From Gemmatimonadota bacterium (GTDB lineage: Bacteria; Gemmatimonadota; Gemmatimonadetes; Gemmatimonadales; Gemmatimonadaceae), in assembly GCA_038060705.1 (NCBI GenBank), contig JBBTFS010000016.1:8960-72959 (forward strand): a stretch of 64,000 nt of DNA, given 5' to 3'. A model generated the notes under the pieces. The model ran no database searches and had not been told where the DNA came from. It worked only from the letters and a program-made list of their open reading frames with translations. Below, piece after piece: positions 4,058 to 25,438 of the stretch; positions within the stretch are counted from its first letter, which is position 1; each line of letters opens with the position of its first letter. The translations under genes and the position numbers were made by a program.

Positions 4058-4804
4058 TCACGAGCTCCGCTGAGTGAGTTGCACTGCGCGAACAACGGCC
4101 GCTGCTGAGACGACCGCCGTCTCGAAGCGCAGCAGGCTGGGTCCAAGCGAAGCCAGGCGCCAGCCCAGGGCAAGGCCCGCGTGGATCTCTTCTTGCTCGA
4201 AACCTCCTTCCGGGCCCACGGCCAGCGCCGCGGGTGCCTTGAGGTTCAGGCCGGCCAACGGCTCCCCGGCTGCGTCCAGCATGATCCGCGTGTGCGAGGA
4301 CGGCACGGCGCTCAATGCGGCCGCCATGCCGGTATCGAGATGGACATCGGGCATCCACGCGCCGCCACTCTGTTCCAGGGCGCCGCGCATTCGCGCCGTC
4401 AATTTGTCCGCGAATTTCGCGCCTTCGCCGCGGTTCGCCACGCTGCTCGACCTCGCCCAAAGCACCGGCCGCCAGGACGTCACTTGGTGCTCCACGCACT
4501 TTTCCGCGGCCCAGAGCATTCGTTCCCGGTCCGCGACCGGCGCCAGAATCTCGATTGCTGGCGGCCGGGGCACGAAATCCACGCTGTCGACCTCCACCGA
4601 GATTCGGGATCGGGTCGCCTCGGCGACCCAGCCGCGTGCCACCGAGCCCTTTCCCGATACGAGATGGACCAGATCGCCCGCGGCCAGTCGGCGCACGAGG
4701 CCGTGCCGCAGGGCGTCGTCCGCAAGCGGAATCACGGAGCCGGCGGCCACCTGCTCACCCCAGTAGAACGTTGCTACGACCGAACGATTGCCGCGCTCCA
4801 CCAC
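4058..4804 (-). CDS. rsmE: 16S rRNA (uracil1498-N3)-methyltransferase RsmE
   Basis: 248-aa ORF with the RsmE C-terminal motif LAVGPEGGFEQEEI. The start (GTG 4804 or 4801) overlaps the prmA 3' end by about 30 nt. Confidence 0.85.
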   Translation of the reverse strand: MVERGNRSVVATFYWGEQVAAGSVIPLADDALRHGLVRRLAAGDLVHLVSGKGSVARGWVAEATRSRISVEVDSVDFVPRPPAIEILAPVADRERMLWAAEKCVEHQVTSWRPVLWARSSSVANRGEGAKFADKLTARMRGALEQSGGAWMPDVHLDTGMAAALSAVPSSHTRIMLDAAGEPLAGLNLKAPAALAVGPEGGFEQEEIHAGLALGWRLASLGPSLLRFETAVVSAAAVVRAVQLTQRSS

Positions 4805-5601
4805 AGACCTTCCTCGTCGGTTGAGGTGATGTTCCAGTTGCCCTCGCGCAGCGCAGCGCGGATATGGTCCGCTTCTTCTGTCAGGATGCCGCCGAGGATG
4901 GCTCGGCCCTCAGCGCCAACCGCCGCCGCGATCAACGGCAGCAACTCGATCAAGACGGGCGTCACGATATTGGCCAGCACCACCTGCACCGGGGCCACCA
5001 AAGGCAGCATGAGGAATGCGTCGCCCTCCATCATGGTGACCGATGTCGCTACGTCGTTGAGTTGGACATTCATGGCAGCGTTGCCCGCGGCATCCGGATC
5101 ATTCTCAATACCATATACATGGCGCGCGCCCAGCTTGGCGGCTGCGATACCCAGCACTCCGCTGCCCGAGCCCAGGTCAGCCACCACGTCGCCTCGTCGG
5201 AGAACGCCCGGCAGCAGGCGCAGCACCCCGCGCGTGGTCTCGTGATCGCCGGTACCGAACGCCATGCCGGGCTCGATGATGATCCGCTCTTCCTTCGAGA
5301 AGCCGCCCGAAAGCCATGGCGGGGTGACGACCAGGTTGCCCACGTGACGCGGCTTGAGGTGAGTGCGCCACTCGACGGTCCAGTCCACATCGGGGGTTGG
5401 CATCGCAGTCAGTGCCGCTGTGGCGTCCGCCGCGACTATTGCCCGGGTGAGGGCCGCCATGTCCGGAGAACGCAGGTGCGTCACGACCTCGGACTCCAGT
5501 TCCTGGACGCCTTCAGCGCCGAACTCGAACAAGGCGCGCACCACGGCGGCGCGGTCCGACGCGTCGCGAACGCGTATCGCAGTCCAGCCGGATAGCGTCA
5601 C
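4774..5601 (-). CDS. prmA: Ribosomal protein L11 methyltransferase PrmA
   Basis: 275 aa. [12 protein letters not shown] and SAM-binding [20 protein letters not shown] motifs. GTGA overlap with the dnaJ stop. Confidence 0.9.
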
Positions 5602-6728
5602 GCGCCAAGCGCGTCGCGCATCCGTGTCCAGAAACTTTTGCCGCGATCAACCGGCACGCTCTTTTGTACCGCGGCCAGCTCGTTGATGAGCTGCTTCTCC
5701 TTCTCCGTGAGACGCTCGGGCGTCCACAGCTGCACGCGGACGTGCAGGTCCCCGGTGCCGCCCGTGTTCACGCGGGGCAGGCCACGTCCGCGCAGGTGAA
5801 ACACCTGCCCGCTTTGGGTTCCCTCCGGCACGGTGAGCATGACGGTGCCCGTGACCGTCGGCACGGTCACTTCACCGCCCAGCACGAGCTGCGCGTACGT
5901 CATCAGCACCTCGGTATAGAGGTCTTCGCCATCGCGGTCGAACCGCGGGTCCTCGGCCACATCGAACACGACATGGATGTCGCCGCGCGCCCCGCCCCGA
6001 ACGCCGGCATTTCCCACGCCGCGAAGTGTCATGTACTGACCGGTCGCGACCCCCGCGGGGACCTGCACCTTGAGATCCTTGTCGGCACGAACGCGGCCTT
6101 CGCCACGGCATTTCTTGCACGGCGACGCGATGACGCTGCCTTCACCCTTGCACGTCGGACACGGCGCCACCGTAACGAACTGGCCGAAGAATGAACGCTG
6201 CGCCCGCTGCACTTCACCGCTGCCCCGGCAACTCGGACACGTTTCGGCGCTGGAGCCCGGCTCGGCGCCGCGGCCTTCGCATCGGTCGCACGGTTCGAGG
6301 AGCTTCAGGTGCACGACCTTCTCGACGCCGCTGGAGACTTCCGGCACCGTCAGCGCCACGGTGACCTTGACGTCCGTGCCGCTGTGCACGCCGCCCTGAC
6401 GGCCCGTGGTGAACATGCCCTCGAATCCGCCGATGCCGAAATCGCGCATAAAAACGCTGAGCGCCTCGGACAGATCGAAATGGTGGAACCCGGCGGCGCC
6501 GGCGCCGCCACGAAGGCCGGCCTCACCGTAGCGATCGTACGCTTCGCGCTTGGTGGGATCGCGCAGGACGTCGTATGCTTCCGTCAGCGACTTGAACTTC
6601 TCTTCCGCTTCCGACGACCCGCTGTTGCGGTCCGGATGCCAGCGCATCGCCAGTTTGCGATATGCCGTCTTGATCTCTTCGTCCGTCGCGGTACGGCCGA
6701 CCCCGAGTACGTGGTAGTAGTCCGCCAT
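5598..6728 (-). CDS. dnaJ: Molecular chaperone DnaJ
   Basis: 376 aa. J domain (DYYHVLGV…HPDRN), G-rich linker and four CxxCxGxG zinc-finger repeats. Confidence 0.96.
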
Positions 6729-6730
6729 GA

Positions 6731-7780
6731 TCAGTCGAGGAGGTCCGACAGCAATCGCGACGTGTGGTTCACGAGTGAAATCACTTTCTCGTACGGCATA
6801 CGCGTCGGGCCAATGACGCCGATGACACCGGACAAAGAACCGGTGTGATATTCGGCGGTCACGACCGTGAAATCGCGCAGCCGCTCATCCTGATGCTCAC
6901 CGCCGATCGTGATCGAGATCCCGGACGTTTCGCCCCGCTTGCGCAGCGCGTCCACCAGTGCTTCGGGCCGCTCCGTGAGCTCGATCAGGCGGCGCATGCG
7001 ATCGACTTCGGCGAACTCCGGCTGGTCGGCCAACACGGACGCCTGACCCAGCACCACGCGCTCTTCACCGATGCCGATCTGGGCGTCGAACAGTGTGTCC
7101 GCTTCCTGCACGAAGATGTTCAACAACTCCTGCGCGTCCGGGACCGACACGCTATCGCGCAACCGGACTCCGAGGGACGTCCGGATGGCCTCGAGCGTGA
7201 GTCCGGACAGGCGTTCGTTGAGCACCTTGGTCACTTCGGCAAGCGCACTCGCTGCGATTGAGCCGGACACCTCGACGAACACTGTACGCACGGCACCGCC
7301 CTCGAGGGTCAGCACCATGAGGAGGCGATCGCTGTTCACGCGAACGAGATCGAGACTGCGCAGAATCGCCTGAGAGATGCGCGGTCCGAGCGCGACGCCA
7401 AGTTCCTGCGTCAGCACGCCAAGTCCCTGCGCCGCGCGCCGGAGAATCGTCTCGATGGGTGAGTCTACGGCGCTCAGCACCTCCGCGAGTCGCTCGCGCT
7501 CGGCCGTTGCGACCGCCGTTGGAGCGCCAATGAGTGAGTCCACGTAGGCGCGGTAGGCTTTGTTGGTGGGCACACGTCCGGCCGACGTGTGCGGATGGAA
7601 GAGATATCCCTTCTCCTCCAGATCGCTCATTGTGTTCCGGATTGTCGCGGGCGAAACGCCCAGACCAAACCGGCGAGACAGTGCCCTCGAGCCCGCCGGT
7701 TCCGCGGTAAGGACGTAGCACTGAATGACCGCGTCCAGGACGCGCCGCTCGCGTTTCGAGAGTTCCTCGACGCGGCTCAT
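6731..7780 (-). CDS. hrcA: Heat-inducible transcription repressor HrcA
   Basis: 349 aa. N-terminal winged helix ([17 protein letters not shown]…EPAGSRALS…[18 protein letters not shown]) typical of HrcA. Confidence 0.92.
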
Positions 7781-7790
7781 AAGTTCAAAC

Positions 7791-8930
7791 CTAGTAACGA
7801 CTTCGGAGCATAGTCAAGTCGGCGACGAGGGCATCCAGACGCAGCCACCCCCTGGGAGTCAAGCGAAGCACGCCTTCACGCGCCGTGGCCCACCCGCTTT
7901 CAACCCAGGTTGACGTGGCGGCTACTACGTCGGGCGACGCCGTCAGCCCGGCGGAAGTCCGCAGGCCCAGGTAGGTGCGCTCCGAATGTGCCTGGTCGGC
8001 GTCCAACTGCTCGCTGCCGGCCACGGTTTGATCGCCACGCACGGCCACCGATTCCCATGCTGCAAAGGCCTCAACGTTCCAGCGTCGCGTCGCGCCATCG
8101 AACTCGTGGGCGGACGGCCCCAGCCCACCGTAGGGCCGCCGCTGCCAGTACGCCCAGTTGTGGCGCGAGTGGCGCTGCGGCGCACCGTAGTTGGACACTT
8201 CATAGTGCTCCAGGCCGCTTGCGGTCAGTCGCTCGTGCGCCACGAGAAACTCCGACTCGAAGTTCTCCTCCGGCGCTTCGACGGTCTCGCGCCGAGCGAC
8301 CCATCGTCCGAGGGGCGTCCTCGGCTCCACCGTGAGGCCATAGACAGACAGGTGCGGCAGTCGGAGTTCCTGCGCTGCATCGAGGTCGCGCCCCCACTCG
8401 CGCCCCACGCTGGCCGGCAGTGCGAAAATCAGGTCAATGGAGATGTTGTCGATACCCGCGTCACGCGCGACAGCGACCGCCTGCCGCGCTCCCGATGCGT
8501 CATGCGTTCGGTGCATCCAGGTCAACACTCGATCGTCGAACGACTGGACGCCGATGGACAGCCGATTCACTCCTGCGTCGCGCCACCGACGCACCGCGTC
8601 GGCGGTGACGTCCTCAGGATTGGCCTCCAGAGTCACTTCGGCGTCGCCGGCCAGCGTGGCCCGCTCGCGCACCATGTCGAGGAGGCGCGCGACGCCTTCC
8701 CCGCCGAGCTTCGACGGCGTGCCGCCGCCGAAGTACAGCGTTTGCAGGGCGAACGTCGACGGCGCGTGCCTGAGGGTCCACTCGCTTCGCACAGCGTCTA
8801 CGAACGCGCCGGCCGGCACGCTGGGGCGTACCGCGATCGAAAAGTCGCAGTAGGTGCAGCGGCGGGCACAAAATGGAACGTGGATGTAGAGGTGCTCGTA
8901 CCGCACGCCGAATAGTACGTCGTCGGCCAT
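7791..8930 (-). CDS. hemW: Radical SAM heme chaperone HemW (HemN-like, oxygen-independent coproporphyrinogen oxidase family)
   Basis: LYIHVPFCARRCTYCDF (CxxxCxxC) near the N-terminus. Start trimmed to ATG 8928-8930, which shares one nt with the dprA stop (TGATG). Confidence 0.88.
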   Translation of the reverse strand: MADDVLFGVRYEHLYIHVPFCARRCTYCDFSIAVRPSVPAGAFVDAVRSEWTLRHAPSTFALQTLYFGGGTPSKLGGEGVARLLDMVRERATLAGDAEVTLEANPEDVTADAVRRWRDAGVNRLSIGVQSFDDRVLTWMHRTHDASGARQAVAVARDAGIDNISIDLIFALPASVGREWGRDLDAAQELRLPHLSVYGLTVEPRTPLGRWVARRETVEAPEENFESEFLVAHERLTASGLEHYEVSNYGAPQRHSRHNWAYWQRRPYGGLGPSAHEFDGATRRWNVEAFAAWESVAVRGDQTVAGSEQLDADQAHSERTYLGLRTSAGLTASPDVVAATSTWVESGWATAREGVLRLTPRGWLRLDALVADLTMLRSRY

Positions 8931-9814
8931 CACCGTCGGCGCACTTCTCCAGTCAGCGCGCACTCGACCGCGCCAACGAGTTCCAGCGTTGTCACCGCTA
9001 CCAGGCACTGCGCCGCCGGCAGTCCGCTTCGATGACAGAGCGTGTCCATATCCAGGCCGCCATCCGCCAACGCGCTCCACACCTTGCCCTCATTGCCGTC
9101 GGGGTCCACGCGCGGTGTCCGTGGTGGTGCCGTGAGGCCTGCGAGCGCCAGGGCGTCCTCGACCGACGTGATGATGCCGGCGCCATCGCGGATCAACAGA
9201 TTGCTCCCCTCACTCTGCGGCTGGTCGATGGGACCGGGGACAGCCGCGACGTCACGTTGCAGTTCACGGGCATGCTCGGCCGTGTTCAAGGCACCGCTTC
9301 GAACGGGTGCCTCGACGACGATGGTGAGCCGACACAGGGCCGCGATGATGCGATTGCGGCGCGGGAACGTGAACGCCATGCCGTGCTCGTCGTGCTCAAG
9401 CTCGCTGAGCAAGAGGCCTTGGCGCGCCACGGCGCGCTGCAGTTCCCGATTGCCCCTTGGAAACACGTGGTTCAAACCGGTACCCAGCACGCCGATCGTG
9501 GCGCCATTCGATTCGAGTGCGGCCCGATGCGCGGCGCTGTCGACGCCTGCTGCCAATCCGCTCACGACGCAGGCGCCTGCCCGCGCGAACGCGGTCGCAA
9601 GTTCCCGCGTCACGCGCAGGCCGTATGGGCTGGCGCGGCGCGTTCCCACGATGGCAATTCGGGGCCGAACGCCAAACGTGGCGGTGTCGCCGAGTGCCCA
9701 CAGGCCCGCAGGCCGTTCGCCGCCCAAGGCGTCGAGATCCTCGGGCCAATCGACGTCGCCGGGCGTCAGCCGCCGGACGCCGTCGGCTGGCTCAAGGAAG
9801 CGGGGTGCGCTCAT
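8930..9814 (-). CDS. dprA: DNA-processing protein DprA (Smf)
   Basis: Rossmann-like core IAIVGTRRASPYGLRVTRELATAFARAGACVVSGLAAGVDSAAH. The upstream part of the 365-aa track ORF is Arg/Trp-rich out-of-frame overlap with obg, so the start is set at ATG 9814 (23-nt overlap with obg). Confidence 0.82.
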   Translation of the reverse strand: MSAPRFLEPADGVRRLTPGDVDWPEDLDALGGERPAGLWALGDTATFGVRPRIAIVGTRRASPYGLRVTRELATAFARAGACVVSGLAAGVDSAAHRAALESNGATIGVLGTGLNHVFPRGNRELQRAVARQGLLLSELEHDEHGMAFTFPRRNRIIAALCRLTIVVEAPVRSGALNTAEHARELQRDVAAVPGPIDQPQSEGSNLLIRDGAGIITSVEDALALAGLTAPPRTPRVDPDGNEGKVWSALADGGLDMDTLCHRSGLPAAQCLVAVTTLELVGAVECALTGEVRRR

Positions 9815-16608: not shown

Positions 16609-17748
16609 CTACGGGGTGGTAGGCCGCTCGTAGATGCGCCAGCGGCGATACACTCGCCCGCCCCACGCCTCGATCACTTGACGCATGGGCTGGTTGTTCT
16701 CGAGCACCCATGAGGCCTCAGCGCCGGTCGACCCGTACGCGGTAGCGCGACGCGCCGCCTCATGCATGAACACGGGAAGGATGCTTCCCGCCCGGAATTC
16801 CTCCTTGATGCCCAGCGCCATGATCCGGCCGGTGCGAAGGCGCGACTTGGCCAGCAGCATCCGAACGGCACCGAACGGCAGCAGGCGCCCGGACCGATTG
16901 GCCTTCAGGGGGATGTTGTAGTCGGGAATGCTGAGCATGAATCCCGCCGGCTGGCCCTTGATCTCCGCGATGAACGCGAACTGCGGGATCAACAGCGACT
17001 TGAGATCCTTGGCCATGTGCATGAACTCGCCATGCGACATCGGCACAAAGCCCCAATTCTTCTCCCACGCCGAGTTGTAGACGTCCCAGCAGATCTGTAC
17101 TTCGTCCCAGAAGCGGTTCATCTGTACATCGCGGAACGTGAGCTTGGCGCGCGCGGCGGCGCGCGCCGCCAGTGCGGCCACGCGCTCCGGCGCCTTGAAG
17201 CCCGCCTCCCCATACGGCAACCAGTAGCCGAGGAGGTCCTGCACCGAAGACAATCCGGCGCCCAACATGAGGCCTTCGTAATACGGCGGATTCCAAGTCG
17301 TGAGAAACTGCGGGTGCTGGTCGAAGCCGTCCACGAGCAGGCCACATTCGTAGTTGGTGGACGGGTTCATCGGCCCACGAATGGCGGTCAGCCCTTTCGC
17401 TCGCAGCCACGTTCCCGCCGCCGACACCAATCCCGCCGTCGCGTCCGGATCGTCCGCGGCGTCAAAGAACCCGAAAAAGCCCACGCGATCGCCGTGTGTC
17501 TCGTTGTGCGTGCGGTTCTCGATGGCCGCAATTCGCCCGACTGGCCGGCCGTCGCGCCGCGCAATGAACAGGGCTCGATCCGCTTCGCGGTAGAATGGGT
17601 TGCTCTTGGTGTCCAGGGCGTCGCGCACCATCATTCGCAGCGGCGGAACCCAAAGCGGCGCGTCGGTCAGCGCAGGAATTCGCCACGGCATGTCCACGAA
17701 GTCAGAAACACCACGCCGGCCGTCGGCCCGCACAATTTCCAATGACAT
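16609..17748 (-). CDS. GNAT-fold acyltransferase-like protein of unknown specificity
   Basis: 379 aa. It belongs to a widespread family I recognise by the pattern PW(R/L)xY…P(N/L)WVPPL…NPF…A…F(I/L)A…G…VGRIAAI…H…G…GFFGFF…RGP(M/V)NPSTN(Y/E)ECGLLV(D/E)GF. Usually annotated as N-acetyltransferase, with an uncharacterised substrate. Confidence 0.6.
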   Translation of the reverse strand: MSLEIVRADGRRGVSDFVDMPWRIPALTDAPLWVPPLRMMVRDALDTKSNPFYREADRALFIARRDGRPVGRIAAIENRTHNETHGDRVGFFGFFDAADDPDATAGLVSAAGTWLRAKGLTAIRGPMNPSTNYECGLLVDGFDQHPQFLTTWNPPYYEGLMLGAGLSSVQDLLGYWLPYGEAGFKAPERVAALAARAAARAKLTFRDVQMNRFWDEVQICWDVYNSAWEKNWGFVPMSHGEFMHMAKDLKSLLIPQFAFIAEIKGQPAGFMLSIPDYNIPLKANRSGRLLPFGAVRMLLAKSRLRTGRIMALGIKEEFRAGSILPVFMHEAARRATAYGSTGAEASWVLENNQPMRQVIEAWGGRVYRRWRIYERPTTP

Positions 17749-18595
17749 GACAGCAATATGGGCGGGTGGCGTATTGACCGCCTATCTGGTCATCACGGGC
17801 ATCATCCTCGCCGTGGGTGCATCCCGCCTGGACGCAAGCGCCCTGCCCCTGCACGGCGCGCTGCTGAGCGTCGTCGTGGCATGCACCTGGTGGAAGCGAG
17901 TGCCCGCCTGGCTTCGCAACTGGATGCCCGTCGTCGCGATTCCGATCTTGTACGTCGAGGCACCCAACGTCATCGCCGCCGCCGGCCATCTCGCAATGCG
18001 CGACCCCGAGATTCTCCGCATCGAGCTGGCGCTGTTTGGTGGCAATCCCGCAGCGGACTTCGCGCGCACCTGGCCATCAAGGATCCTGAGCGAGCTCCTG
18101 CACGCTTGCTACCTGAGTTACTACGCGATCGTGATATCGATGCCGCTCCTGCTCCAGTACAGCCGGCGCGGGCGCGATTACTCGCGGGCGGTGTTCGCCC
18201 TGCTGCTGACGTTCACGACCTGCTTCATGATCTACGCAGTGTACCCGGTGGAAGGGCCCAGGTATCGCGGCGGCGCCGACGCGCCTGACGGCCCCATCTG
18301 CGCCGCGACGCTCTGGCTGCTCGAGAACGGATCCTCACGCGGAACGGCGTTCCCGTCTTCGCACGTGGCCGTGGCGGTGGCGCAGAGCATCGTCGCGATC
18401 TACTTCTTCGGCGCGCGCGGCGCCTGGCTCGCACTCCTCACGCTGGGCCTCGCCCTGGGCGCGGTTTACGGTGGATTTCACTACGCGATCGATGCGGTCG
18501 CCGGCGCGGTGCTCGGCACGGTGACGGCGGCATTCGCGTTGTACGTCAGCGCGGACCGAGCCCCAACTCAGGCGAACGCCACCGAGCCGACATAG
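17747..18595 (+). CDS. Polytopic membrane protein of the PAP2 (type-2 phosphatidic acid phosphatase / phosphotransferase) superfamily
   Basis: Multiple hydrophobic segments. C-terminal catalytic motifs FPSSHVAVAV and YGGFHYAIDAVAG (SxH … HxxxD). Start set at ATG 17747; alternative ATG 17690 would overlap the divergent gene by 59 nt. Confidence 0.7.
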   Translation: MTAIWAGGVLTAYLVITGIILAVGASRLDASALPLHGALLSVVVACTWWKRVPAWLRNWMPVVAIPILYVEAPNVIAAAGHLAMRDPEILRIELALFGGNPAADFARTWPSRILSELLHACYLSYYAIVISMPLLLQYSRRGRDYSRAVFALLLTFTTCFMIYAVYPVEGPRYRGGADAPDGPICAATLWLLENGSSRGTAFPSSHVAVAVAQSIVAIYFFGARGAWLALLTLGLALGAVYGGFHYAIDAVAGAVLGTVTAAFALYVSADRAPTQANATEPT

Positions 18596-19224
18596 CGATC
18601 GGCGTCGCGGGTAGCCTTGGTCAGGAGGTCGTCCAAGGCAACGGCGACAACATTGGTGAGGTCCGCGGTGGTGGCTCCAGAAATGCCCACGCCGATCGCC
18701 TTGAGCCCGGATTCCTTGGTGCTCCACACGCGCAGAAACGCGTCGGATACGTTCACGCCGTCGGCGGTCAGCCGCCGGACTTCCTGCTGCTCGACCGGCG
18801 TCAGCCAACGGGCGATCAGCGCGTCGGCGCGAACCACCGGCCGGCGACGCTCGACGTCGACGCCCACGGCGCGTTCGGCAGAGACGGCCATGACGATCAG
18901 GTCCCCGGAGTGACTGACGTTGAAATGCAGGTCGTCTGAGACCACGGGCTTGCCGAGGTCCGTCACCCGCACCGTCACCTGATTCGGAGGAATCGCCAGA
19001 TGTTCACCCAGCACCCGGCGGACCAATGCGCGCGTGATCACGTAGCACCCTGCGGAGGCGAGGTTTCGATAGCGGCCCAAGCGCGACCGCTCCGCGTCGG
19101 AGAGCACGTCCCGCGAAAGCGTCGCAACGACGTCCGCGTGCTGGTCAACCCAGGCGAACCAGATGTCGGCGGCGCCGGAACGGACCCGCACTGTGCCCAG
19201 TCGCGCGCCGACGTTCGGGTGCAC
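18568..19224 (-). CDS. 4'-phosphopantetheinyl transferase, Sfp/EntD type
   Basis: …SDAERSRLGRYRNLASAGCYVITRALVR…GKPVV…LHFNVSHSGDLIVMAVS…VGVDVE…VWSTKESGLKAIG are classic Sfp-type motifs. Start uncertain (GTG 19224 chosen, GTG 19191 possible). The longer track ORF would overlap the upstream gene. Confidence 0.8.
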   Translation of the reverse strand: MHPNVGARLGTVRVRSGAADIWFAWVDQHADVVATLSRDVLSDAERSRLGRYRNLASAGCYVITRALVRRVLGEHLAIPPNQVTVRVTDLGKPVVSDDLHFNVSHSGDLIVMAVSAERAVGVDVERRRPVVRADALIARWLTPVEQQEVRRLTADGVNVSDAFLRVWSTKESGLKAIGVGISGATTADLTNVVAVALDDLLTKATRDADRYVGSVAFA

Positions 19225-19238
19225 TTGACTCGGCGCGC

Positions 19239-19859
19239 TTAGCCGAGGAACGCGTACGACAAGCCGGCCTCTTGCGCGCGATTCACAGCCACGATCATCG
19301 CCGGCACCGGAGTCACGCCCGGCAGCAAGTTGGATGTGAGCTCCGCGCGTACGGCTTCGGCGTTGCCACCGCCCGACGCCAGCTCCCGGCTCATTCGGCG
19401 GATGCTCCGCATGCACACGATGAACCGTACGCCGCGCTCCTGAAGGCGAGCGACGGAAGTCGTTCCGTTCCGTGCCCAGGGATTCCGGACGGACGGCGCG
19501 CCAGTCTGCGGATCCATTTCGGAATACCGCTTTCCGATCTCGTACTTCGCCCACATCGCGTCGTTGAGCGCGATAGGCATGCCGCCGCCGTGGATCCCGA
19601 AGATGGCGTTGAGCTCTGAGTCCTTGAGGCTGTACGCCTCGCCGTAGGCATCGAAGAAGTTCGCCACGCGGCCGAGCGGGTGACCATCCTTGCAGCCATC
19701 AACATCGAAGATCTGGCGGTGCTTGCCATTGAGACCCTGAAGCCAGGACTCATCTGGCGCCGGTTCCGTGGCGGACGATTGCCGGGGCCACAGGGCCAAT
19801 GCGGCCAGCGACGCGCCGGCACGGCGCATGAACCCGCGCCTCGGAGTGACAGGATTCAT
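19239..19859 (-). CDS. Tat-signal (twin-arginine) exported protein of unknown function
   Basis: 206 aa. N-terminus MNPVTPRRGFMRRAGASLAALALWPRQSSA has a twin-arginine motif, h-region and AxA-like site. The mature part vaguely resembles DsrE/F-like folds (low confidence). ATGA overlap with the upstream gene's stop. Confidence 0.6.
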   Translation of the reverse strand: MNPVTPRRGFMRRAGASLAALALWPRQSSATEPAPDESWLQGLNGKHRQIFDVDGCKDGHPLGRVANFFDAYGEAYSLKDSELNAIFGIHGGGMPIALNDAMWAKYEIGKRYSEMDPQTGAPSVRNPWARNGTTSVARLQERGVRFIVCMRSIRRMSRELASGGGNAEAVRAELTSNLLPGVTPVPAMIVAVNRAQEAGLSYAFLG

Positions 19860-22800
19860 CGGATGGACTCCAATAGCGTCGCCAGTGTGTCGACGGCGGT
19901 GTGGATTTGCTCCACGGTGTGGGATGACGAGACAAAGAAGCGCAGGCGAGCCGCGGACTCTGGCACAGCCGGCGCGATCATCGGTTGCACGTTGATCCCC
20001 CGCTCCAGCAGTTGCTGCGACAGGCGCACGGCCCGCATCGAATCGCCGATGATCACGGGAATGATCGGCGTCCCGTTGCTCGCGCCGGTGTCGAGTCCGC
20101 GCGCCCGCGCCGCGGAGAGGAACGCAGCGGCGTTCGCCTGCAGCCGCGCCACGCGTTCGGGTTCGCGCCGAACGATTCTGAGCGCCTCAAGCGCAGCTGC
20201 CGCATTGGCCGGCGCCATCCCAACGCTGAAGACAAAACCCGGCGCGGTGTATTTGAGGTATTCGACGATTTCGCCGCGCGCTGCGATGTACCCGCCGACG
20301 CTGGCAAGCGACTTCGAGAGCGTGCCCATCCAGAGGTCTACCCCGCGTGGCGAGATCGCGAAGTGCTCCGCGATGCCCCGCCCCGTGGTGCCAAGAACGC
20401 CAATCGAGTGGGCCTCGTCCACCATCAGCCATGCCTCGTGGCGGCGCTTCACTTCCACGAATCGCGGCAGATCCGGAATGTCGCCGTCCGCGCTGTATAC
20501 GCCTTCAATCACGATGAGCGCGCGCCGCGCGTGGGAGCGTACGTCGTGGAGCAGCCGCTCGGCAGCCTCGAAATCGTTGTGGCGGAACGTGAGCCGCCTC
20601 GCGCCGGAGAACAACGCGCCCTGCATGGCCGAGTTGTGCAGCAACTCGTCGCACAAGACAACATCGTCCGGCCCGACCAGGTGCGAGATGGTCGACACGT
20701 TGGTCGTGACGCCGCCAATGAACGTGACGCAATCCTCAACGCCAATGAAACCGGCGAGTTCCTCCTCAAGCTCGCGGTGCACCGGCCGTTCGCCGGACAC
20801 CAGCCGGCTCGCAGACGCCGAGGTTCCATAGCGCCGCACCGCCGCGATCACGGCGTCGCGCACCCGCGGATCGCCGGCGAGGTCGAGGTAGTTGTAGTTC
20901 GAGAAGTTGAGGACGTCGCGACCGCCAATCAGCGCCCGGTTTCCGGACGTGCCGTCGTGCACACGGAAGTACGGATTCTCCAAGCCGTGCCTCTCCAGTT
21001 CCTCCAGACGGCCCTGGAGCAGGCGGTATTCCGGGAACTCCGCCGCCGGCAGCGGCGACACCGACCTGCCGTCGCGCCTTTCCGGTATCGCGGACACAGC
21101 GCCCGACGTTCCCATCGCGTTCGCGCCCGCCTCCAGTGCCTGCACCAGTGCGCGAATCGAGGATTCGCGCCACAAGACGGACACGTCCACGCGCCGGCCC
21201 AGCACCTGTTCCAGTTCGGTGACAAGACGGACGGCTGAGACCGAGTCCAGTCCGTAATCACGCACGGACGCCGCGGGATCCACGGCGTCAATGCCGATGC
21301 CGAGCTCGTCCGCCACCCAGCTGCGCAGCCACAACTCCAGGCGAGGCGACACGCCGGGGACGCCACGCAACGCCGGCACGTCGTCGATTGTCTGCTCCGA
21401 GTGGGCCACGACATCGAGCGTCTTGGCCAAGAGCCGGACGCGCGTCTCGCCGCGACGCACTTTCCCGCTCGACGTGCGCGGAATGCCGTTCTGCGCCACG
21501 AGCGTGATCACGTCCGGGAGGATTCCCTCCTTGTCCGCAAGCGCTCGTCGCACAGCAGCGAACACCGCCTCGTTGTCGTCGTCGTTATGGTGCCTCGTCA
21601 CCTCGAGTGCGATCGCCAACCGTTCGCGCGCTTCGCCAGGCAGCGCGTACGCGGCCGCATGGCCCGGACGAAGGTTTGGGTGACTCCGCTGCGCCGCGAG
21701 CTCGAGGTCCTGCGGGTAGTAGTTGCGGCCGCCGATGATGATGAGGTCCTTCAGCCTCCCCGTAACGAACAACTGGCCGTCATCGAGGAATCCGAGGTCG
21801 CCCGTCCGCAGGAATGCGCGACCCGGGTCCGCCGCGAGGGTGACGCCGAACACCGGTTCCGCTTCGTCCTGCGTCCGCCAGTAGCGGGAGGCGATGCTCT
21901 CACCAGACACCCAGATCTCGCCAATGCGCCGATCTTCAACCACTGCGCGCGATGCCGGATCGACGATGCGGACGATTTGGCCCTCCGCCGGTGCGCCGGA
22001 GGACACCAGTCGCAGGCGATCGCCCGCCGTGGCCGGCGCGATGCGCTTTTGCTCAAGCGCGTCGCGCGACACATCCAGCGTGGACGCCCCCTGCCCCCAC
22101 GGTCCGCCCGCCACGAACAGAGTGGCCTCGGCCAGCCCATAACACGGAAAGAAGGCGTCGCTCCGGAAGCCTGCCGGCGCGAACGCGCGCGTGAACCGCT
22201 CGATCGTTTCCGCGCGAATCGGTTCGGCACCATCGAATACGGTGTGCCAACACGAGAGGTCGAGTCCGCGCATCTCTTCGGGCTTGATGCGCTCCACACA
22301 CAGGTCGAACGCGAAGTTCGGCGCCGCGGTGCTGGTGGCCCGGTAGGTGGACGTTGCCTCAAGCCACGAAAGCGGCCGCTGCAGGAATGTCGCCGACGCG
22401 AGGAGCACCGACCCGATGCCCAGGTACATCGGTTGCAGAATGCCGCCGATCAATCCCATGTCGTGAAACGGCGGCAGCCAGGATAATGCCAGATCATCAA
22501 CGGCCACGGGATAGGCCGCGCGGATGAGCGACAAGTTGTGCAGGAGATTGGCGTGCGTCAGAACGACTCCGCGCGGAGCCGCCGTCGAGCCGGAGGTGTA
22601 CTGCAGCATGGCGATGTCAGACGCGGTGGTCGCTCGCGCGTGCGAAACGTCCCCCTCGGTCGGGTCGTCCACGGCGATCCAGCGCAGTCGTCGCAGCCGC
22701 TCATCGTCACCGCGCCAGGACTCGAGTCGCTCGAGCAGCGACTTGGTGGTCAGCGCCGCGGCCGGCTCACAGTCCGACGCAATCGCCGACACTCGCGGGT

Positions 22801-23155
22801 CCGGGCGACGCGGGTGTGGAGGATACGCCGGCACCGCGATCACCCCTGCATAGAGACACCCAAAGAAAGCGGCCAGGTAGTCAAGCCCAGGCGGCACAAG
22901 CAAGAGAACCCGGTCGCCGGGCTTGGTGACTTCCGCGATGCGCGCCGCAACGCCAAGCGCACGCAACTCCAGCTGCCGATGAGTGATCGCCTCAACCGGC
23001 TTTCGGTCACCTGGCAGAAACCGGTACACTTGGAAATCGGGGCGCTCGGCAATACGAAGTCGCAACAGATCCACCAGCGTCCGGCAGCCTGCCGCGCGCA
23101 CGTCGTCAGTGCGCACGGGACGATGGGTTGGACGTACAGACGGCGAGGCGCGCAT
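19856..23155 (-). CDS. Tri-domain fusion: fatty acyl-AMP ligase (FAAL) + phosphopantetheine carrier domain + PLP-dependent alpha-oxoamine synthase (Spt/BioF/Kbl family)
   Basis: 1099 aa. Adenylation core LQYTSGSTAAPRGV, AAPNFAFD, GRNYYPQDLE, SSGKVRR. Carrier motif DYGLDSVSAV (Ser638 codon 21242-21244). AOS domain FSNYNYLDLA…MVDEAHSIG…GTLSKS (Lys948 codon 20312-20314). Confidence 0.88.
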   Translation of the reverse strand: MRASPSVRPTHRPVRTDDVRAAGCRTLVDLLRLRIAERPDFQVYRFLPGDRKPVEAITHRQLELRALGVAARIAEVTKPGDRVLLLVPPGLDYLAAFFGCLYAGVIAVPAYPPHPRRPDPRVSAIASDCEPAAALTTKSLLERLESWRGDDERLRRLRWIAVDDPTEGDVSHARATTASDIAMLQYTSGSTAAPRGVVLTHANLLHNLSLIRAAYPVAVDDLALSWLPPFHDMGLIGGILQPMYLGIGSVLLASATFLQRPLSWLEATSTYRATSTAAPNFAFDLCVERIKPEEMRGLDLSCWHTVFDGAEPIRAETIERFTRAFAPAGFRSDAFFPCYGLAEATLFVAGGPWGQGASTLDVSRDALEQKRIAPATAGDRLRLVSSGAPAEGQIVRIVDPASRAVVEDRRIGEIWVSGESIASRYWRTQDEAEPVFGVTLAADPGRAFLRTGDLGFLDDGQLFVTGRLKDLIIIGGRNYYPQDLELAAQRSHPNLRPGHAAAYALPGEARERLAIALEVTRHHNDDDNEAVFAAVRRALADKEGILPDVITLVAQNGIPRTSSGKVRRGETRVRLLAKTLDVVAHSEQTIDDVPALRGVPGVSPRLELWLRSWVADELGIGIDAVDPAASVRDYGLDSVSAVRLVTELEQVLGRRVDVSVLWRESSIRALVQALEAGANAMGTSGAVSAIPERRDGRSVSPLPAAEFPEYRLLQGRLEELERHGLENPYFRVHDGTSGNRALIGGRDVLNFSNYNYLDLAGDPRVRDAVIAAVRRYGTSASASRLVSGERPVHRELEEELAGFIGVEDCVTFIGGVTTNVSTISHLVGPDDVVLCDELLHNSAMQGALFSGARRLTFRHNDFEAAERLLHDVRSHARRALIVIEGVYSADGDIPDLPRFVEVKRRHEAWLMVDEAHSIGVLGTTGRGIAEHFAISPRGVDLWMGTLSKSLASVGGYIAARGEIVEYLKYTAPGFVFSVGMAPANAAAALEALRIVRREPERVARLQANAAAFLSAARARGLDTGASNGTPIIPVIIGDSMRAVRLSQQLLERGINVQPMIAPAVPESAARLRFFVSSSHTVEQIHTAVDTLATLLESIR

Positions 23156-23162
23156 GGAGGGG

Positions 23163-24170
23163 TCAGTTCACGACTGGGGCTGCACCGCGCGGATCACGGA
23201 GCCACCCAGCTCGAACGTACCAAAGGTAGGTGTCGCGAACAGCGTCGGGGAGAGATCGCGACGGGTTGAACCCGATTTCGCTCCGAGCCCGTGACGCAGA
23301 GCACACCCAGCGCGGCTGCGCCGCCAGCACGGCCCTGCTGTGGCACAGCAGTGGAGCCGTCCCGGTGGCGCGGCCCAGCCACTCGCCAACCGTTGACGCC
23401 GCGCTCACGAGGCCCGAGCTGAGGTTCACGGTTCGCGGCGCCACGCCCATGGCTTTCGACACGTGTGCGCCAAACTCGCCCCAAGTGACCGGAGAATCCG
23501 AGGCCAGGAAGTACGTGCGCCCGATCGCTGCCTGCTCGCGCGAGGCATTCATGAGCCCATCCACAACGTCGTCCACATGCAACAGCGACATCTCGTGGCG
23601 TTGAATGCCGGGGTAGATGAGCCAACCGCGCTGCGCCAATCGGAACAACGACAGGAATCCGCGATCCCAGGGACCGAACACCGAGCACGGCCGCACAATC
23701 GTGGTGGCCACACGATTCGAGAAGCCCTCGACAACCCGCTCGGCTGCCAACTTGCTCCGCCCATAAGCCTCCAGCGGGGCGGGCGCGTCGGCTTCCGTGA
23801 CCGACTGACCCGGCCCCGCCGGACCGGCCGCGGACTGCGATGACACATGCACGAAGCGCGGCCCCGCCCGCCGACTGGTGATCGCCCGCAACAGCATCCG
23901 CGTCGGCGCCACGTTCGCCCGGTCGAAGCGAGCCTGGCCGGTTGCGTGCGTCGCCGCAGCCAGATGGAACACCACGTCGGCGCCGTCGAACGCATGGCAC
24001 CGGTCGAGAGAGTCCTGATCATCGTAATTCACTGGAAACGCCGCGGCACCTGGCGGCGGTGCGTGCCCCCGCGCACGCACCAGGCATCGCACCTCCGCGC
24101 CACGGCCCAGCAAGCGTTGGACGAGATTCCGCCCGATGAAGCCGCTGGCTCCGGTGACGACGACGATCAT
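23163..24170 (-). CDS. NAD(P)-dependent epimerase/dehydratase-family (extended SDR) oxidoreductase
   Basis: 335 aa. N-terminal Rossmann motif MIVVVTGASGFIGRNL and catalytic YGRSK. Its stop lies 7 nt before the fusion gene's ATG. Its ATG overlaps the hflX stop (ATGA). Confidence 0.82.
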   Translation of the reverse strand: MIVVVTGASGFIGRNLVQRLLGRGAEVRCLVRARGHAPPPGAAAFPVNYDDQDSLDRCHAFDGADVVFHLAAATHATGQARFDRANVAPTRMLLRAITSRRAGPRFVHVSSQSAAGPAGPGQSVTEADAPAPLEAYGRSKLAAERVVEGFSNRVATTIVRPCSVFGPWDRGFLSLFRLAQRGWLIYPGIQRHEMSLLHVDDVVDGLMNASREQAAIGRTYFLASDSPVTWGEFGAHVSKAMGVAPRTVNLSSGLVSAASTVGEWLGRATGTAPLLCHSRAVLAAQPRWVCSASRARSEIGFNPSRSLPDAVRDTYLWYVRAGWLRDPRGAAPVVN

Positions 24171-25438
24171 GACCCGCGGACGCCTTCCCGTTGCACGGTC
24201 ACACCCGCCTGACGCAGGCGGCCGGCCAGCCGGTCGTTCACTCGAGCGCGCACCACCAGCTGCTCACCCACCGTCCGTTGGTCAATCACCTCGCCGTCAC
24301 GATGGATCTCGGCCAACAGCTTGCCATCCGAGTGGGAAAGGCGGATCTCGGCCACCGGCCGATTCGCCCGAACAGCGGACTGCAGCGCACGACGGAGCGG
24401 ATCGAGTCCACCCGGCGCTTCGGCGGAAACGAAGACAGCGCCCGGGCAGTCCGCGGCCACGCGATCCTGAAGCGTAAGAAGTTCGTCCCCGGGGAGCAGG
24501 TCGATCTTGTTGAACACCAGCAGCACTGGGCGCTCGCTGAGACCCAGCTCGTTCAGTACGTCCACCACCACTTCGCGCTGTTCCTCCCACATCGGATGGG
24601 CGGCGTCAATGATGTGCAGCAGGATGTCGGCCTCCCGGGCCTCCTCGAGGGTGGCGCGAAATGATGCCACGAGATGATGCGGGAGTTTGCGGATGAAGCC
24701 CACCGTGTCTGTGACGAGCACACGAGAGTTGTCGCCGAGCTTCACTTCGCGCGTCAGCGGATCCAGCGTCGCGAACAGCCGGTCCTCCACAAACACGTCG
24801 TCAGCTTCGGCGAGGGCACGCAGGATCGAGGACTTGCCCGCGTTCGTGTAGCCGACCAGCGACGCCTTGAACTCGTCGCGCCGACCGCTGCGCTGCACCA
24901 CGCGCCCCTTCTCCACTTCCTTGAGCCGCTCCTTGAGGAGCTTGATCCGATGACTGATGAGGCGCCGGTCGGTCTCGAGCTGGGTCTCGCCGGGGCCTCG
25001 CACGCCGATACCGCCACGGAACTTCTCGAGGTGCGTCCACATCCGGGTGAGTCGCGGCAGCATGTACTCGAGCTGCGCCAGCTCCACCTGCATTTTGGAT
25101 TCGGACGTGCGAGCCCGCGTCGCGAATATGTCGAGGATCAGCTCGGCGCGATCCACCACGCGCTGTCCCACAATGCCCTCGATGTTCTTCGCCTGGGACG
25201 GCGTCAGCTCGTCGTCGAAGATCACCAGCGTGACAGCGAGTTCCGCCACCATCGCCTTCAACTCTTCCAGCTTTCCAACGCCGAGGTAGGTGCCGGGATG
25301 CGGACGGTCGAGTTGTTGGGTCAACTCCCCGACCACCAGGGCACCCGCGGTGTCCGCCAGTCGGCGCAGCTCGCTGAGGTGTTCGCGCAGCATCACGGCG
25401 CGATCGCGGGTGCGCTTGAGCGGCGCGCCAACGAGCAA
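24167..25438 (-). CDS. hflX: GTPase HflX
   Basis: LILDIFATRARTSESKMQVELAQLEYMLPRL…GPGETQLETDRR…GYTNAGKSS…DTVGFI…NKIDL. The only canonical start in frame is TTG 25436-25438 (see finding on the N-terminus). Confidence 0.9.
   Translation of the reverse strand: MLVGAPLKRTRDRAVMLREHLSELRRLADTAGALVVGELTQQLDRPHPGTYLGVGKLEELKAMVAELAVTLVIFDDELTPSQAKNIEGIVGQRVVDRAELILDIFATRARTSESKMQVELAQLEYMLPRLTRMWTHLEKFRGGIGVRGPGETQLETDRRLISHRIKLLKERLKEVEKGRVVQRSGRRDEFKASLVGYTNAGKSSILRALAEADDVFVEDRLFATLDPLTREVKLGDNSRVLVTDTVGFIRKLPHHLVASFRATLEEAREADILLHIIDAAHPMWEEQREVVVDVLNELGLSERPVLLVFNKIDLLPGDELLTLQDRVAADCPGAVFVSAEAPGGLDPLRRALQSAVRANRPVAEIRLSHSDGKLLAEIHRDGEVIDQRTVGEQLVVRARVNDRLAGRLRQAGVTVQREGVRGS

Follow-up and report, generated by a model that had tools for sequence, protein, structure and literature searches.

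Within a 64,000-nucleotide stretch of the Gemmatimonadota bacterium contig JBBTFS010000016.1 (hereafter the window; all coordinates below refer to this whole 64-kb stretch), a gene cluster spanning 16609-24170 probably encodes the Gemmatimonadota version of the known bacterial dihydroceramide pathway, with three of the five Caulobacter-type proteins fused into one polypeptide. Bacterial sphingolipids were long considered rare, and recent work has found the genes for Spt, bCerS and CerR in many phyla. The conserved core of the cluster consists of an extended short-chain dehydrogenase/reductase (SDR), a fusion protein joining a fatty acyl-AMP ligase (FAAL), an acyl carrier protein (ACP) and an α-oxoamine synthase (AOS), and a tandem-GNAT N-acyltransferase, to which a phosphopantetheinyl transferase (PPTase) and a membrane enzyme of the PAP2_3 family are added in Gemmatimonadota. 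The original prediction for this DNA had placed a five-gene operon at 18568-25438, comprising hflX, the SDR, the fusion, a twin-arginine translocation (Tat) signal protein and the PPTase, and had read the fusion, reductase and PPTase as a cassette for a sphingoid-type lipid. The cassette is backed by homology to the Caulobacter and Escherichia coli gene set and by co-localization across phyla. The functional unit, however, is 16609-24170 and not the five-gene operon, as hflX adjoins the SDR gene in the closest relatives only and the Tat gene is an insertion present in a few genomes. Two conserved genes outside those bounds had been overlooked, namely a bCerS/YghO-type N-acyltransferase and the PAP2_3 enzyme, and because both belong to the cluster, the predicted product is an N-acylated ceramide, probably with a phospho-head group. 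The chemistry proposed earlier, leading to a 2-amino-3-hydroxy long-chain base, is right as far as it went, but the free base is no longer the expected end product.

To define the extent of the cluster, loci were drawn from contigs carrying fusion homologues and from a scan of one genome per GTDB species, and all window proteins were compared by tblastn; the counts cover 30 Gemmatimonadota loci and 41 loci of other phyla from the GTDB scan. Among the former, 28 have the SDR gene immediately ahead of the fusion and 25 have the GNAT gene; the five without it break off within ~1.7 kb on the downstream side of the fusion. The PPTase gene comes after the fusion in 21 loci, and 20 carry the PAP2_3 gene. 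The SDR, fusion and GNAT genes stay together in 25-28 of the 30 loci, across several rearrangements. Full-length fusions also occur outside Gemmatimonadota, in Planctomycetota, Verrucomicrobiota, Acidobacteriota, Methylomirabilota and others. A GNAT homologue lies within 10 kb of the fusion in 14 of the 41 loci of other phyla, and an SDR homologue likewise in 14, largely the same ones; these co-localized loci belong to Phycisphaerae, Sedimentisphaerales, Tepidisphaeraceae, Verrucomicrobiota and Methylomirabilota, and usually carry an ABC-2 exporter and sometimes a PAP2 protein.

The fusion is a tri-domain FAAL-ACP-AOS protein of 1099 aa (19856-23155, minus strand), matched by the Pfam families AMP-binding, PP-binding and Aminotran_1_2, and it is the predicted fused equivalent of AasR, AcpR and Spt. 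The fatty acyl-AMP ligase or acyl-ACP synthetase domain (aa ~25-582; 21410-23083, minus strand) scores 383-435 bits against NCBIfam FAAL subfamilies, below their cut-offs, and is 35% identical (277 bits) to the FAAL gene product of the E. coli yghO cluster, which published assignments (PMC9386255) identify as the AasR orthologue. The carrier domain (aa 609-674; 21134-21331, minus strand; PP-binding, 55 bits) contains the predicted phosphopantetheine-bearing serine S638 within a GLDS motif (nt 21242-21244), with D637 and S638 invariant in 8 homologues; it aligns weakly with the E. coli AcpR orthologue, the serine falling in register, a likeness that is generic only. The pyridoxal phosphate (PLP)-dependent AOS domain (aa ~707-1097; 19865-21037, minus strand) matches Aminotran_1_2 at 164 bits and holds its PLP lysine, K948, at nt 20312-20314. 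Catalytic residues are intact in the AOS and ACP parts of the fusion, as they are in the SDR, PPTase and PAP2 proteins. The architecture is kept across several phyla, ~55 of the best 150 representatives at 50% identity being single-stretch tri-domain proteins of ~1,100 aa. In a Myxococcaceae metagenome-assembled genome (MAG; locus L073, 9821-13294), FAAL-ACP (660 aa) and AOS (416 aa) occupy two open reading frames (ORFs) 240 nt apart that tblastn aligns as a single full-length match; the protein may truly be split here, or a frameshift may separate its two parts.

The tandem-GNAT N-acyltransferase (16609-17748, minus strand; 379 aa) is assigned by homology to the YghO/bCerS (CC_1154) family and is the predicted ceramide synthase. 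Pfam gives only a marginal GNAT match, and the AlphaFold (AF2) model (pLDDT 76.6, pTM 0.78) adopts a tandem-GNAT fold; neither a search of solved structures with the single sequence nor an NCBIfam search at E = 10 returned a match. Searching annotated plasmid records by tblastn yielded full-length homologues at 33-41% identity, and the ones examined belong to or adjoin sphingolipid gene sets: E. coli yghO adjoins genes for a FAAL, an epimerase-family SDR, an ACP and an AOS, the Sphingomonas parapaucimobilis homologue lies in a cluster with a classical serine palmitoyltransferase (SPT), an ACP and an SDR, and the Streptomyces, Rubrobacter and Aureispira homologues belong to AOS-GNAT-SDR trios. 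Full-length identity is 33% with E. coli YghO (E 6e-69) and 34-39% with the N-acetyltransferases of the Sphingomonas, Roseomonas and Streptomyces sphingolipid clusters. The link to Caulobacter follows from published orthology, in which yghO/ECD_02850 corresponds to CC_1154 (the bCerS N-acyltransferase), ECD_02852 to CC_1164 (CerR), ECD_02851 to aasR (CC_1165), ECD_02853 to acpR (CC_1163) and ECD_02854 to spt (CC_1162) (PMC9386255). As for the records themselves, that of E. coli PN43 (NZ_MG591698.1; L086), 354 kb long and entered as a plasmid, looks like a chromosomal segment containing lptF/lptG, glcABCDEFG and the yghO sphingolipid-type cluster, and two other ‘plasmid’ matches are E. coli records of 4.8-4.9 Mb.

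The third core protein is a CerR-type extended SDR (23163-24170, minus strand; Pfam Epimerase and 3Beta_HSD), predicted to reduce the 3-ketone of the long-chain base or ceramide. It carries the motif GASGFIG, the catalytic pair YGRSK and the signature SSQSAAGP common to CerR orthologues; the general form of this signature, SS(L/Q)xAxxP, is that of the CerR group, whereas sugar enzymes have S(S/T)xxVYG. Over the full length it shares 34, 32 and 27% identity with the cluster SDRs of Streptomyces, Sphingomonas and E. coli, respectively, and its two best matches in the plasmid database, at 175 and 129 bits, come from the Spt-GNAT-SDR trios of Aureispira and Rubrobacter. In a small neighbor-joining (NJ) tree of 17 sequences, 186 of 200 bootstraps separated the SDRs of sphingolipid clusters, that of the window included, from a set made up of HpnA, UXS, GalE and two sugar-context SDRs, while groupings of the Gemmatimonadota SDRs with HpnA or with the sugar-context SDRs each appeared in none (0/200). 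In this tree the enzyme sides with CerR rather than with the sampled sugar-nucleotide enzymes, so that the grouping with sugar-nucleotide epimerases that the original prediction had named as refuting it did not appear. An identity as a sugar-nucleotide epimerase or HpnA was rejected given the lack of any such grouping, the SSQSAAGP motif, the Spt/GNAT context without sugar genes, and a score of 114 bits against the HpnA model (cut-off 368).

Two further enzymes accompany the core in Gemmatimonadota. The first, at 18568-19224 (minus strand), is a 4′-phosphopantetheinyl transferase that matches Pfam ACPS and AASDHPPT_N above their cut-offs and, among NCBIfam models, HetI best (98 bits), with the motifs VGVDVE and WSTKESGLKA (metal-binding, W/FxxKE) present in its translation. 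These two-domain matches and motifs agree on the Sfp type named in the original prediction; from its adjacency to the fusion, which it overlaps by 4 nt where the Tat gene is absent, the enzyme is predicted to prime S638. The second, a PAP2_3 integral membrane enzyme (17747-18595, plus strand; Pfam PAP2_3 60 bits, cut-off 27), is a putative AUR1-like ceramide phospho-head-group transferase. Its PSSH and HYAID motifs are invariant across phyla (invariant residues P203, H206, H245 and D249), and homologues occur in the Tepidisphaeraceae and Verrucomicrobiota clusters. With a profile, its best matches among solved structures are those of the yeast AUR1 inositol phosphorylceramide (IPC) synthase (E 1e-5); the single sequence gave no match in solved structures, and the NCBIfam model for phosphoinositol dihydroceramide synthase scored 15 bits only. 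Judged on sequence, a ceramide head-group transferase is the preferred reading of this enzyme, at roughly even chances.

The amino acid condensed by the fusion would determine which lipid is made. The closest solved structure to the AOS domain is the Sphingobacterium SPT (SpSPT, 254 bits), with Kbl (214), human SPTLC2 (201), ALAS (181), BioF (178), the cysteate-C-fatty acyltransferase 28eh (163) and CqsA (85 bits) scoring lower, and residues H840, D913, H916, K948 and R1072 align with H159, D231, H234, K265 and R390 of SpSPT. The residue preceding the PLP lysine is a serine, as in every sampled Spt, whereas E. coli BioF and Kbl have a glycine; a 2013 modeling study proposed that this serine contacts the hydroxyl of the serine substrate (PMC3870968). 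Identity of the domain with the Spts of sphingolipid clusters is 31-39%. The fused AOS domains of five phyla form a clade of their own (100/100 bootstraps), 53-89% identical within it and 29-36% identical to Spt, Kbl and BioF alike. Because the clade is equidistant from these three families, we infer the use of L-serine from the gene context and the Ser-Lys motif, to which the closest solved structure adds its weight. The same order of enzymes could instead serve a fused AOS that accepts alanine, glycine or threonine, yielding a 1-deoxy or otherwise non-canonical N-acyl amino-alcohol lipid. Such a substrate would suit the monophyly and equal distance of the fused clade, the lack of SpSPT Arg378 in the AOS domain, and the failure of every curated Spt model to reach its cut-off. 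Arg378 is, however, equally absent from the E. coli and Streptomyces Spt homologues of sphingolipid clusters, the Ser-Lys motif is common to all sampled Spts and absent from BioF and Kbl, the nearest structure is an SPT, and the AUR1-like PAP2_3 enzyme together with a GT21 gene in related clusters implies a C1 hydroxyl to decorate; we consider another amino acid unlikely.

The ranking of solved structures also bears on whether the cluster makes a capnine-type sulfonolipid from cysteate rather than serine. Capnine synthesis likewise joins an AOS enzyme with a reductase, and the cysteate enzyme 28eh does match the AOS domain, but its 163 bits rank well below SPT, Kbl, SPTLC2, ALAS and BioF, no cysteate synthase is found in or near the cluster, and the partner enzymes are homologues of the ceramide pathway; this candidate was rejected as extremely improbable. 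A product other than a bulk membrane lipid has also to be weighed, namely a diffusible or secondary-metabolite amino-ketone or amino-alcohol, FAAL-primed and resembling the CqsA/LqsA autoinducers. FAAL-ACP-AOS modules do occur inside large proteins of 1.4-2.6 kaa that resemble polyketide synthases and nonribosomal peptide synthetases (PKS/NRPS), the architecture was first catalogued among assembly-line enzymes (PMC3870968), and a dedicated Sfp-type PPTase is typical of secondary metabolism. CqsA is nevertheless distant (85 against 254 bits for SPT), the genes alongside encode homologues of bCerS and CerR together with a PAP2_3 membrane enzyme and, outside the phylum, an ABC-2 exporter, and the cluster has housekeeping genes around it and is kept in nearly all Gemmatimonadota loci sampled, which together make a secondary metabolite very unlikely.

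Several points weigh against the dihydroceramide pathway itself, beginning with the equal distance of the fused AOS clade from Spt, Kbl and BioF. In the NJ tree of AOS enzymes, the position of this clade relative to Spt and Kbl reaches only 40/100, and we know of no product for any of its members. All family models (Spt, BioF, FAAL and HpnA) score below their curated NCBIfam cut-offs. Raw scores of the SDR overlap, CerR orthologues giving 100-120 bits (100-104 for those of Proteobacteria), the two sugar-context SDRs 119-123 and HpnA 105-112, and the SDR tree is a small one of 17 sequences whose bootstrap support was counted as bipartitions. The match of the PAP2_3 enzyme to AUR1 is weak (28 bits over ~140 residues), with the PgpB and LpxE phosphatases close behind. 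About 20 loci of Pirellulaceae and other Planctomycetia carry the fusion without a GNAT or SDR gene within 10 kb, and a search of the accessible literature library found no lipid data for carriers of the cluster, Gemmatimonadota included. Finally, the Caulobacter set was compared through the E. coli orthologues named in PMC9386255, as proxies for the Caulobacter sequences themselves.

In the dihydroceramide pathway, which on the whole of this evidence we still hold to be probable, synthesis would begin when the Sfp-type PPTase converts the carrier domain of the fusion into its holo form. The FAAL domain would then adenylate a free long-chain fatty acid and load it onto the adjacent carrier, by analogy with AasR, which was shown to acylate AcpR. 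The C-terminal PLP domain would condense the tethered acyl chain with an amino acid, for which L-serine is the likeliest candidate, releasing CO2 and giving a 3-keto long-chain base. The YghO/bCerS-type tandem-GNAT enzyme would N-acylate this base, and the CerR-type SDR would reduce the 3-ketone, either before or after the acylation, the order being unfixed as in Caulobacter. In the last and weakest step, the ceramide probably receives a phospho-head group from the AUR1-like PAP2_3 enzyme. Neither HflX nor the DsrE-like Tat protein would belong to the pathway; both would be neighbors brought there by genome compaction or insertion.

The layout of the locus was described accurately by the original prediction: all five adjoining minus-strand ORFs and their four junctions were located at the positions given, and the domain identities of the five genes were upheld by Pfam and NCBIfam searches. 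An ATGA at 24167-24170 is common to hflX (24167-25438) and the SDR gene, the 7-nt gap cccctcc (23156-23162) precedes the ATG of the fusion at 23155, a second ATGA at 19856-19859 is common to the fusion and the Tat gene (19239-19859), and a 14-nt gap (19225-19238) lies ahead of the GTG at 19224 with which the PPTase gene opens, to end at 18568. Tight junctions are not distinctive in this window, because 20 of its 31 same-strand neighbor pairs are equally close (gap ≤15 nt; 13 of them overlapping; median gap 6 nt, from a rough gene call over the whole window). The co-directional run also continues upstream into genes for LEA_2, RarA, a ZIP transporter and the CCA-adding enzyme, with 4-nt overlaps there too. 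Co-transcription is plausible; a scan of the locus for promoters and terminators gave no signal above the shuffled expectation. Two start codons are uncertain: the NCBI entry for the fusion protein, a 100% identical one from a Gemmatimonadota metagenome-assembled genome, has 1086 aa, beginning 13 codons later than the 1099-aa call, and the PPTase gene has an alternative GTG 11 codons downstream.

At the other end of the cluster, the GNAT gene (minus strand) and the PAP2_3 gene (plus strand) begin head-to-head, their start codons overlapping within the palindrome CATG at 17746-17749. Because of this overlap, each promoter must lie inside the coding region of the other gene, unless PAP2_3 starts at an upstream ATG at 17690. 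The same 2-nt head-to-head overlap is found in loci L001, L007-L010, L023 and L075, while the clade with 51-56% fusion identity has a spacer of 140-300 nt between the two starts instead. The 3′ ends of the PPTase and PAP2_3 genes converge with a 28-nt overlap (18568-18595), and an identical overlap is annotated in L001 and L002.

The genes at the margin of the core behave differently. hflX (24167-25438, minus strand; TIGR03156 443 bits, cut-off 217) is a housekeeping neighbor that abuts the SDR gene only in relatives with a fusion identity of at least ~58%; in the Gemmatimonadota clade whose fusions are 51-56% identical to that of the window, other genes intervene and hflX is found 1-8 kb upstream, and it is absent from the clusters of other phyla. 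A role of hflX in the lipid pathway was rejected on account of this distance and this absence, and with adjacency limited to the closest relatives, the earlier suggestion that the link is incidental is borne out. The Tat-signal protein (19239-19859, minus strand) is an accessory insertion between the fusion and the PPTase, identified as DsrE/DsrF-like by its AF2 fold and Foldseek. Its twin-arginine N-terminus is conserved (R7, R8 and F10 invariant in 26 homologues), the AF2 model (pLDDT 91) shows an invariant cysteine, the top Foldseek matches are DsrE-like, and the JGI annotation likewise names a DsrE/DsrF family protein, of a small family with 313 homologues; neither single-sequence nor profile searches matched it among solved structures. 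The gene occupies this position in 3 of the 30 Gemmatimonadota loci (L006, L008 and L075), and distant homologues lie in unrelated contexts (L092 and L093). It was therefore rejected as a pathway member and is probably an insertion. Comparison of gene order in relatives, proposed as a check in the original prediction, thus speaks against the five-gene order, with hflX beside the SDR in the closest relatives only and the Tat gene in three loci. That the five genes nevertheless form one functional unit, HflX and the DsrE-like protein aiding or regulating lipid synthesis, could draw on the ATGA overlaps joining hflX to the SDR gene and the fusion to the Tat gene, the first of which recurs in the closest relatives. 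Such overlaps, however, are the norm in this genome, hflX drifts away from the SDR gene in the more distant clade and is missing in other phyla, and the Tat protein, rare at this site, has the fold of a sulfur-carrier-like DsrE, leaving this arrangement only a very slight chance.

Further observations concern genes found near the fusion in other lineages. In 16 loci outside Gemmatimonadota (L048, L050, L053, L055 and 12 more), an ABC-2 exporter (ATPase and permease) is present, in most cases right after the fusion; the sphingolipid genes of E. coli, Sphingomonas and Roseomonas have lptF/lptG-like permease genes beside them in its place, and both kinds of neighbor suggest dedicated lipid export. 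In the Acidobacteriota locus L050 (15401-17849), a GT21 gene (ceramide glucosyltransferase family) and a radical-SAM/SPASM gene stand beside the fusion and exporter, and the GT21 gene fits a ceramide product. The fused AOS domains of the MAG loci L048, L050, L053 and L055, which are assigned to Verrucomicrobiota, Acidobacteriota, Methylomirabilota and Tepidisphaeraceae, are 80-89% identical to one another, far closer than the phyla themselves, indicating either recent horizontal transfer of the cluster or mis-binned contigs. The chromosome of the cultured planctomycete Anatilimnocola sp. NA78 (L038) carries the fusion without a GNAT or CerR-type SDR gene within 10 kb, and a classical adh_short SDR (8666-9493), reminiscent of the 3-ketodihydrosphingosine (KDS) reductases of eukaryotes and Bacteroides, lies just upstream of it. 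Replacement of CerR by a classical SDR in Pirellulaceae was considered and dropped, as the only other match, at 39%, is in L050 and no other sampled locus has one, all other Pirellulaceae and Planctomycetia included.

A block consisting of Wzi, a GT4 glycosyltransferase, LPG_synthase_TM (an MprF-flippase-like membrane domain) and a polysaccharide deacetylase accompanies the ceramide cluster in other Gemmatimonadota, in three different arrangements (L001, 15976-20465; L003, 14517-17382; L013, about 4300-8900). None of the four has a tblastn match in the 64-kb window or in L006. The block may provide a glycosylated head group (perhaps GlcNAc converted to GlcN) that is absent from this lineage or encoded elsewhere. 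On a more tentative view, which we regard as possible but well short of likely, the fused clade is more than an Spt joined to its helpers and forms a separate lineage of long-chain-base synthases, widespread in Gemmatimonadota, Planctomycetota, Verrucomicrobiota and Acidobacteriota, phyla abundant in soil and water; these synthases would use free fatty acids directly, maybe with another amino acid or chain length, and their product would be decorated by a eukaryote-like AUR1-type phosphotransferase and, in many Gemmatimonadota, by the GT4/deacetylase/flippase-like block, giving an undescribed class of outer-membrane phospho- or glyco-sphingolipids.

Since the pathway and its chemistry are already known and stay unchanged, the finding is more of use than a surprise. 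Its new elements are the connection of the tri-domain architecture to the pathway and its spread in Gemmatimonadota and allied phyla. FAAL-ACP-AOS proteins, which the 2013 catalogue listed without a function and of which the best 150 matches include more than 50 clusters at 50% identity, appear by gene context to be the entry enzyme of the pathway. This role would extend over Gemmatimonadota and the sampled Phycisphaerae-type and allied lineages, among them phyla abundant in soil and freshwater. The cluster also suggests that bacteria may have a head-group step of the AUR1 kind. The design as one polypeptide with its own PPTase offers a convenient set of three or four genes with which a heterologous host could produce ceramides from free fatty acids.

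Among described proteins, the closest in architecture are the A-CP-PLP2 tri-domain proteins of the 2013 catalogue (Microscilla marina A1ZVW4, Blastopirellula marina A3ZWL3 and Synechococcus PCC 7002 B1XHP8), whose domain arrangement is identical to that of the window fusion and whose AOS was modeled on the Sphingobacterium SPT (PMC3870968). No function, partners or pathway were assigned to them, whereas the partners in the window and related loci (bCerS, CerR, PAP2_3 and the exporter) point to sphingolipid synthesis. A survey of the Black Sea found Spt matches inside longer proteins and Spt-like proteins in 38 phyla, many co-localized with bCerS and CerR (PMC11334938). Beyond these two studies, our literature search returned no characterized FAAL-AOS or FAAL-Spt fusion and no relevant work on sphingolipids of Gemmatimonadota or Planctomycetota. 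The PAP2_3 enzyme shares its Pfam family and the PSxH and HYxxD motifs with the yeast IPC synthase AUR1; unlike yeast, the cluster has no Kei1 partner, and a PgpB/LpxE-like phosphatase role for PAP2_3 is possible.

Two other bacterial systems resemble the cluster in part. The three-gene Spt-bCerS-CerR sets of Actinomycetota and Bacteroidota (Streptomyces sp. NBC_01001, Rubrobacter radiotolerans and Aureispira anguillae), which we group with the ‘Spt-like clade B’ of the Black Sea survey (PMC11334938) as one known system, have GNAT and SDR genes of the same families adjoining an AOS gene, and their SDRs are the best database matches of the window SDR (117-175 bits). Unlike the window, they have a stand-alone Spt of ~400 aa, presumably using acyl-CoA, and no FAAL, ACP or PPTase. 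Pseudomonas fluorescens MYb115 makes PKS-derived sphingolipids by means of the iterative PKS PfSgaA, the AOS PfSgaB and the KDSR-like SgaC (PMC12134224). As in the predicted pathway, a carrier-tethered acyl chain is passed to an AOS (with SPT activity in MYb115) and a ketoreductase follows, a precedent for non-canonical acyl delivery to a bacterial Spt; the MYb115 system, however, uses a PKS-built chain and a classical SDR, where the window is predicted to use a FAAL-activated free fatty acid and an extended CerR-type SDR.

The nearest relative in function is the Caulobacter-type (‘rhodobacterial’) dihydroceramide pathway, composed of Spt (CC_1162), AcpR (CC_1163), CerR (CC_1164), AasR (CC_1165) and bCerS (CC_1154), with its E. 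coli counterpart ECD_02850-02854 (PMC9386255, PMC11324152, PMC11087976). It differs from the cluster described here in that AasR, AcpR and Spt are united in one 1099-aa polypeptide in the window, that the AOS belongs to a separate clade, ~31-35% identical to proteobacterial Spt, and that the window cluster also includes its own Sfp-type PPTase and a PAP2_3 enzyme; lptF/lptG, which lie beside the sphingolipid genes in E. coli, Sphingomonas and Roseomonas, do not adjoin it. Homologues of all five functions of the Caulobacter and E. coli set are nevertheless present and clustered here, and the order FAAL, ACP, AOS within the fusion is the order in which the E. coli genes are transcribed, the SDR excepted.

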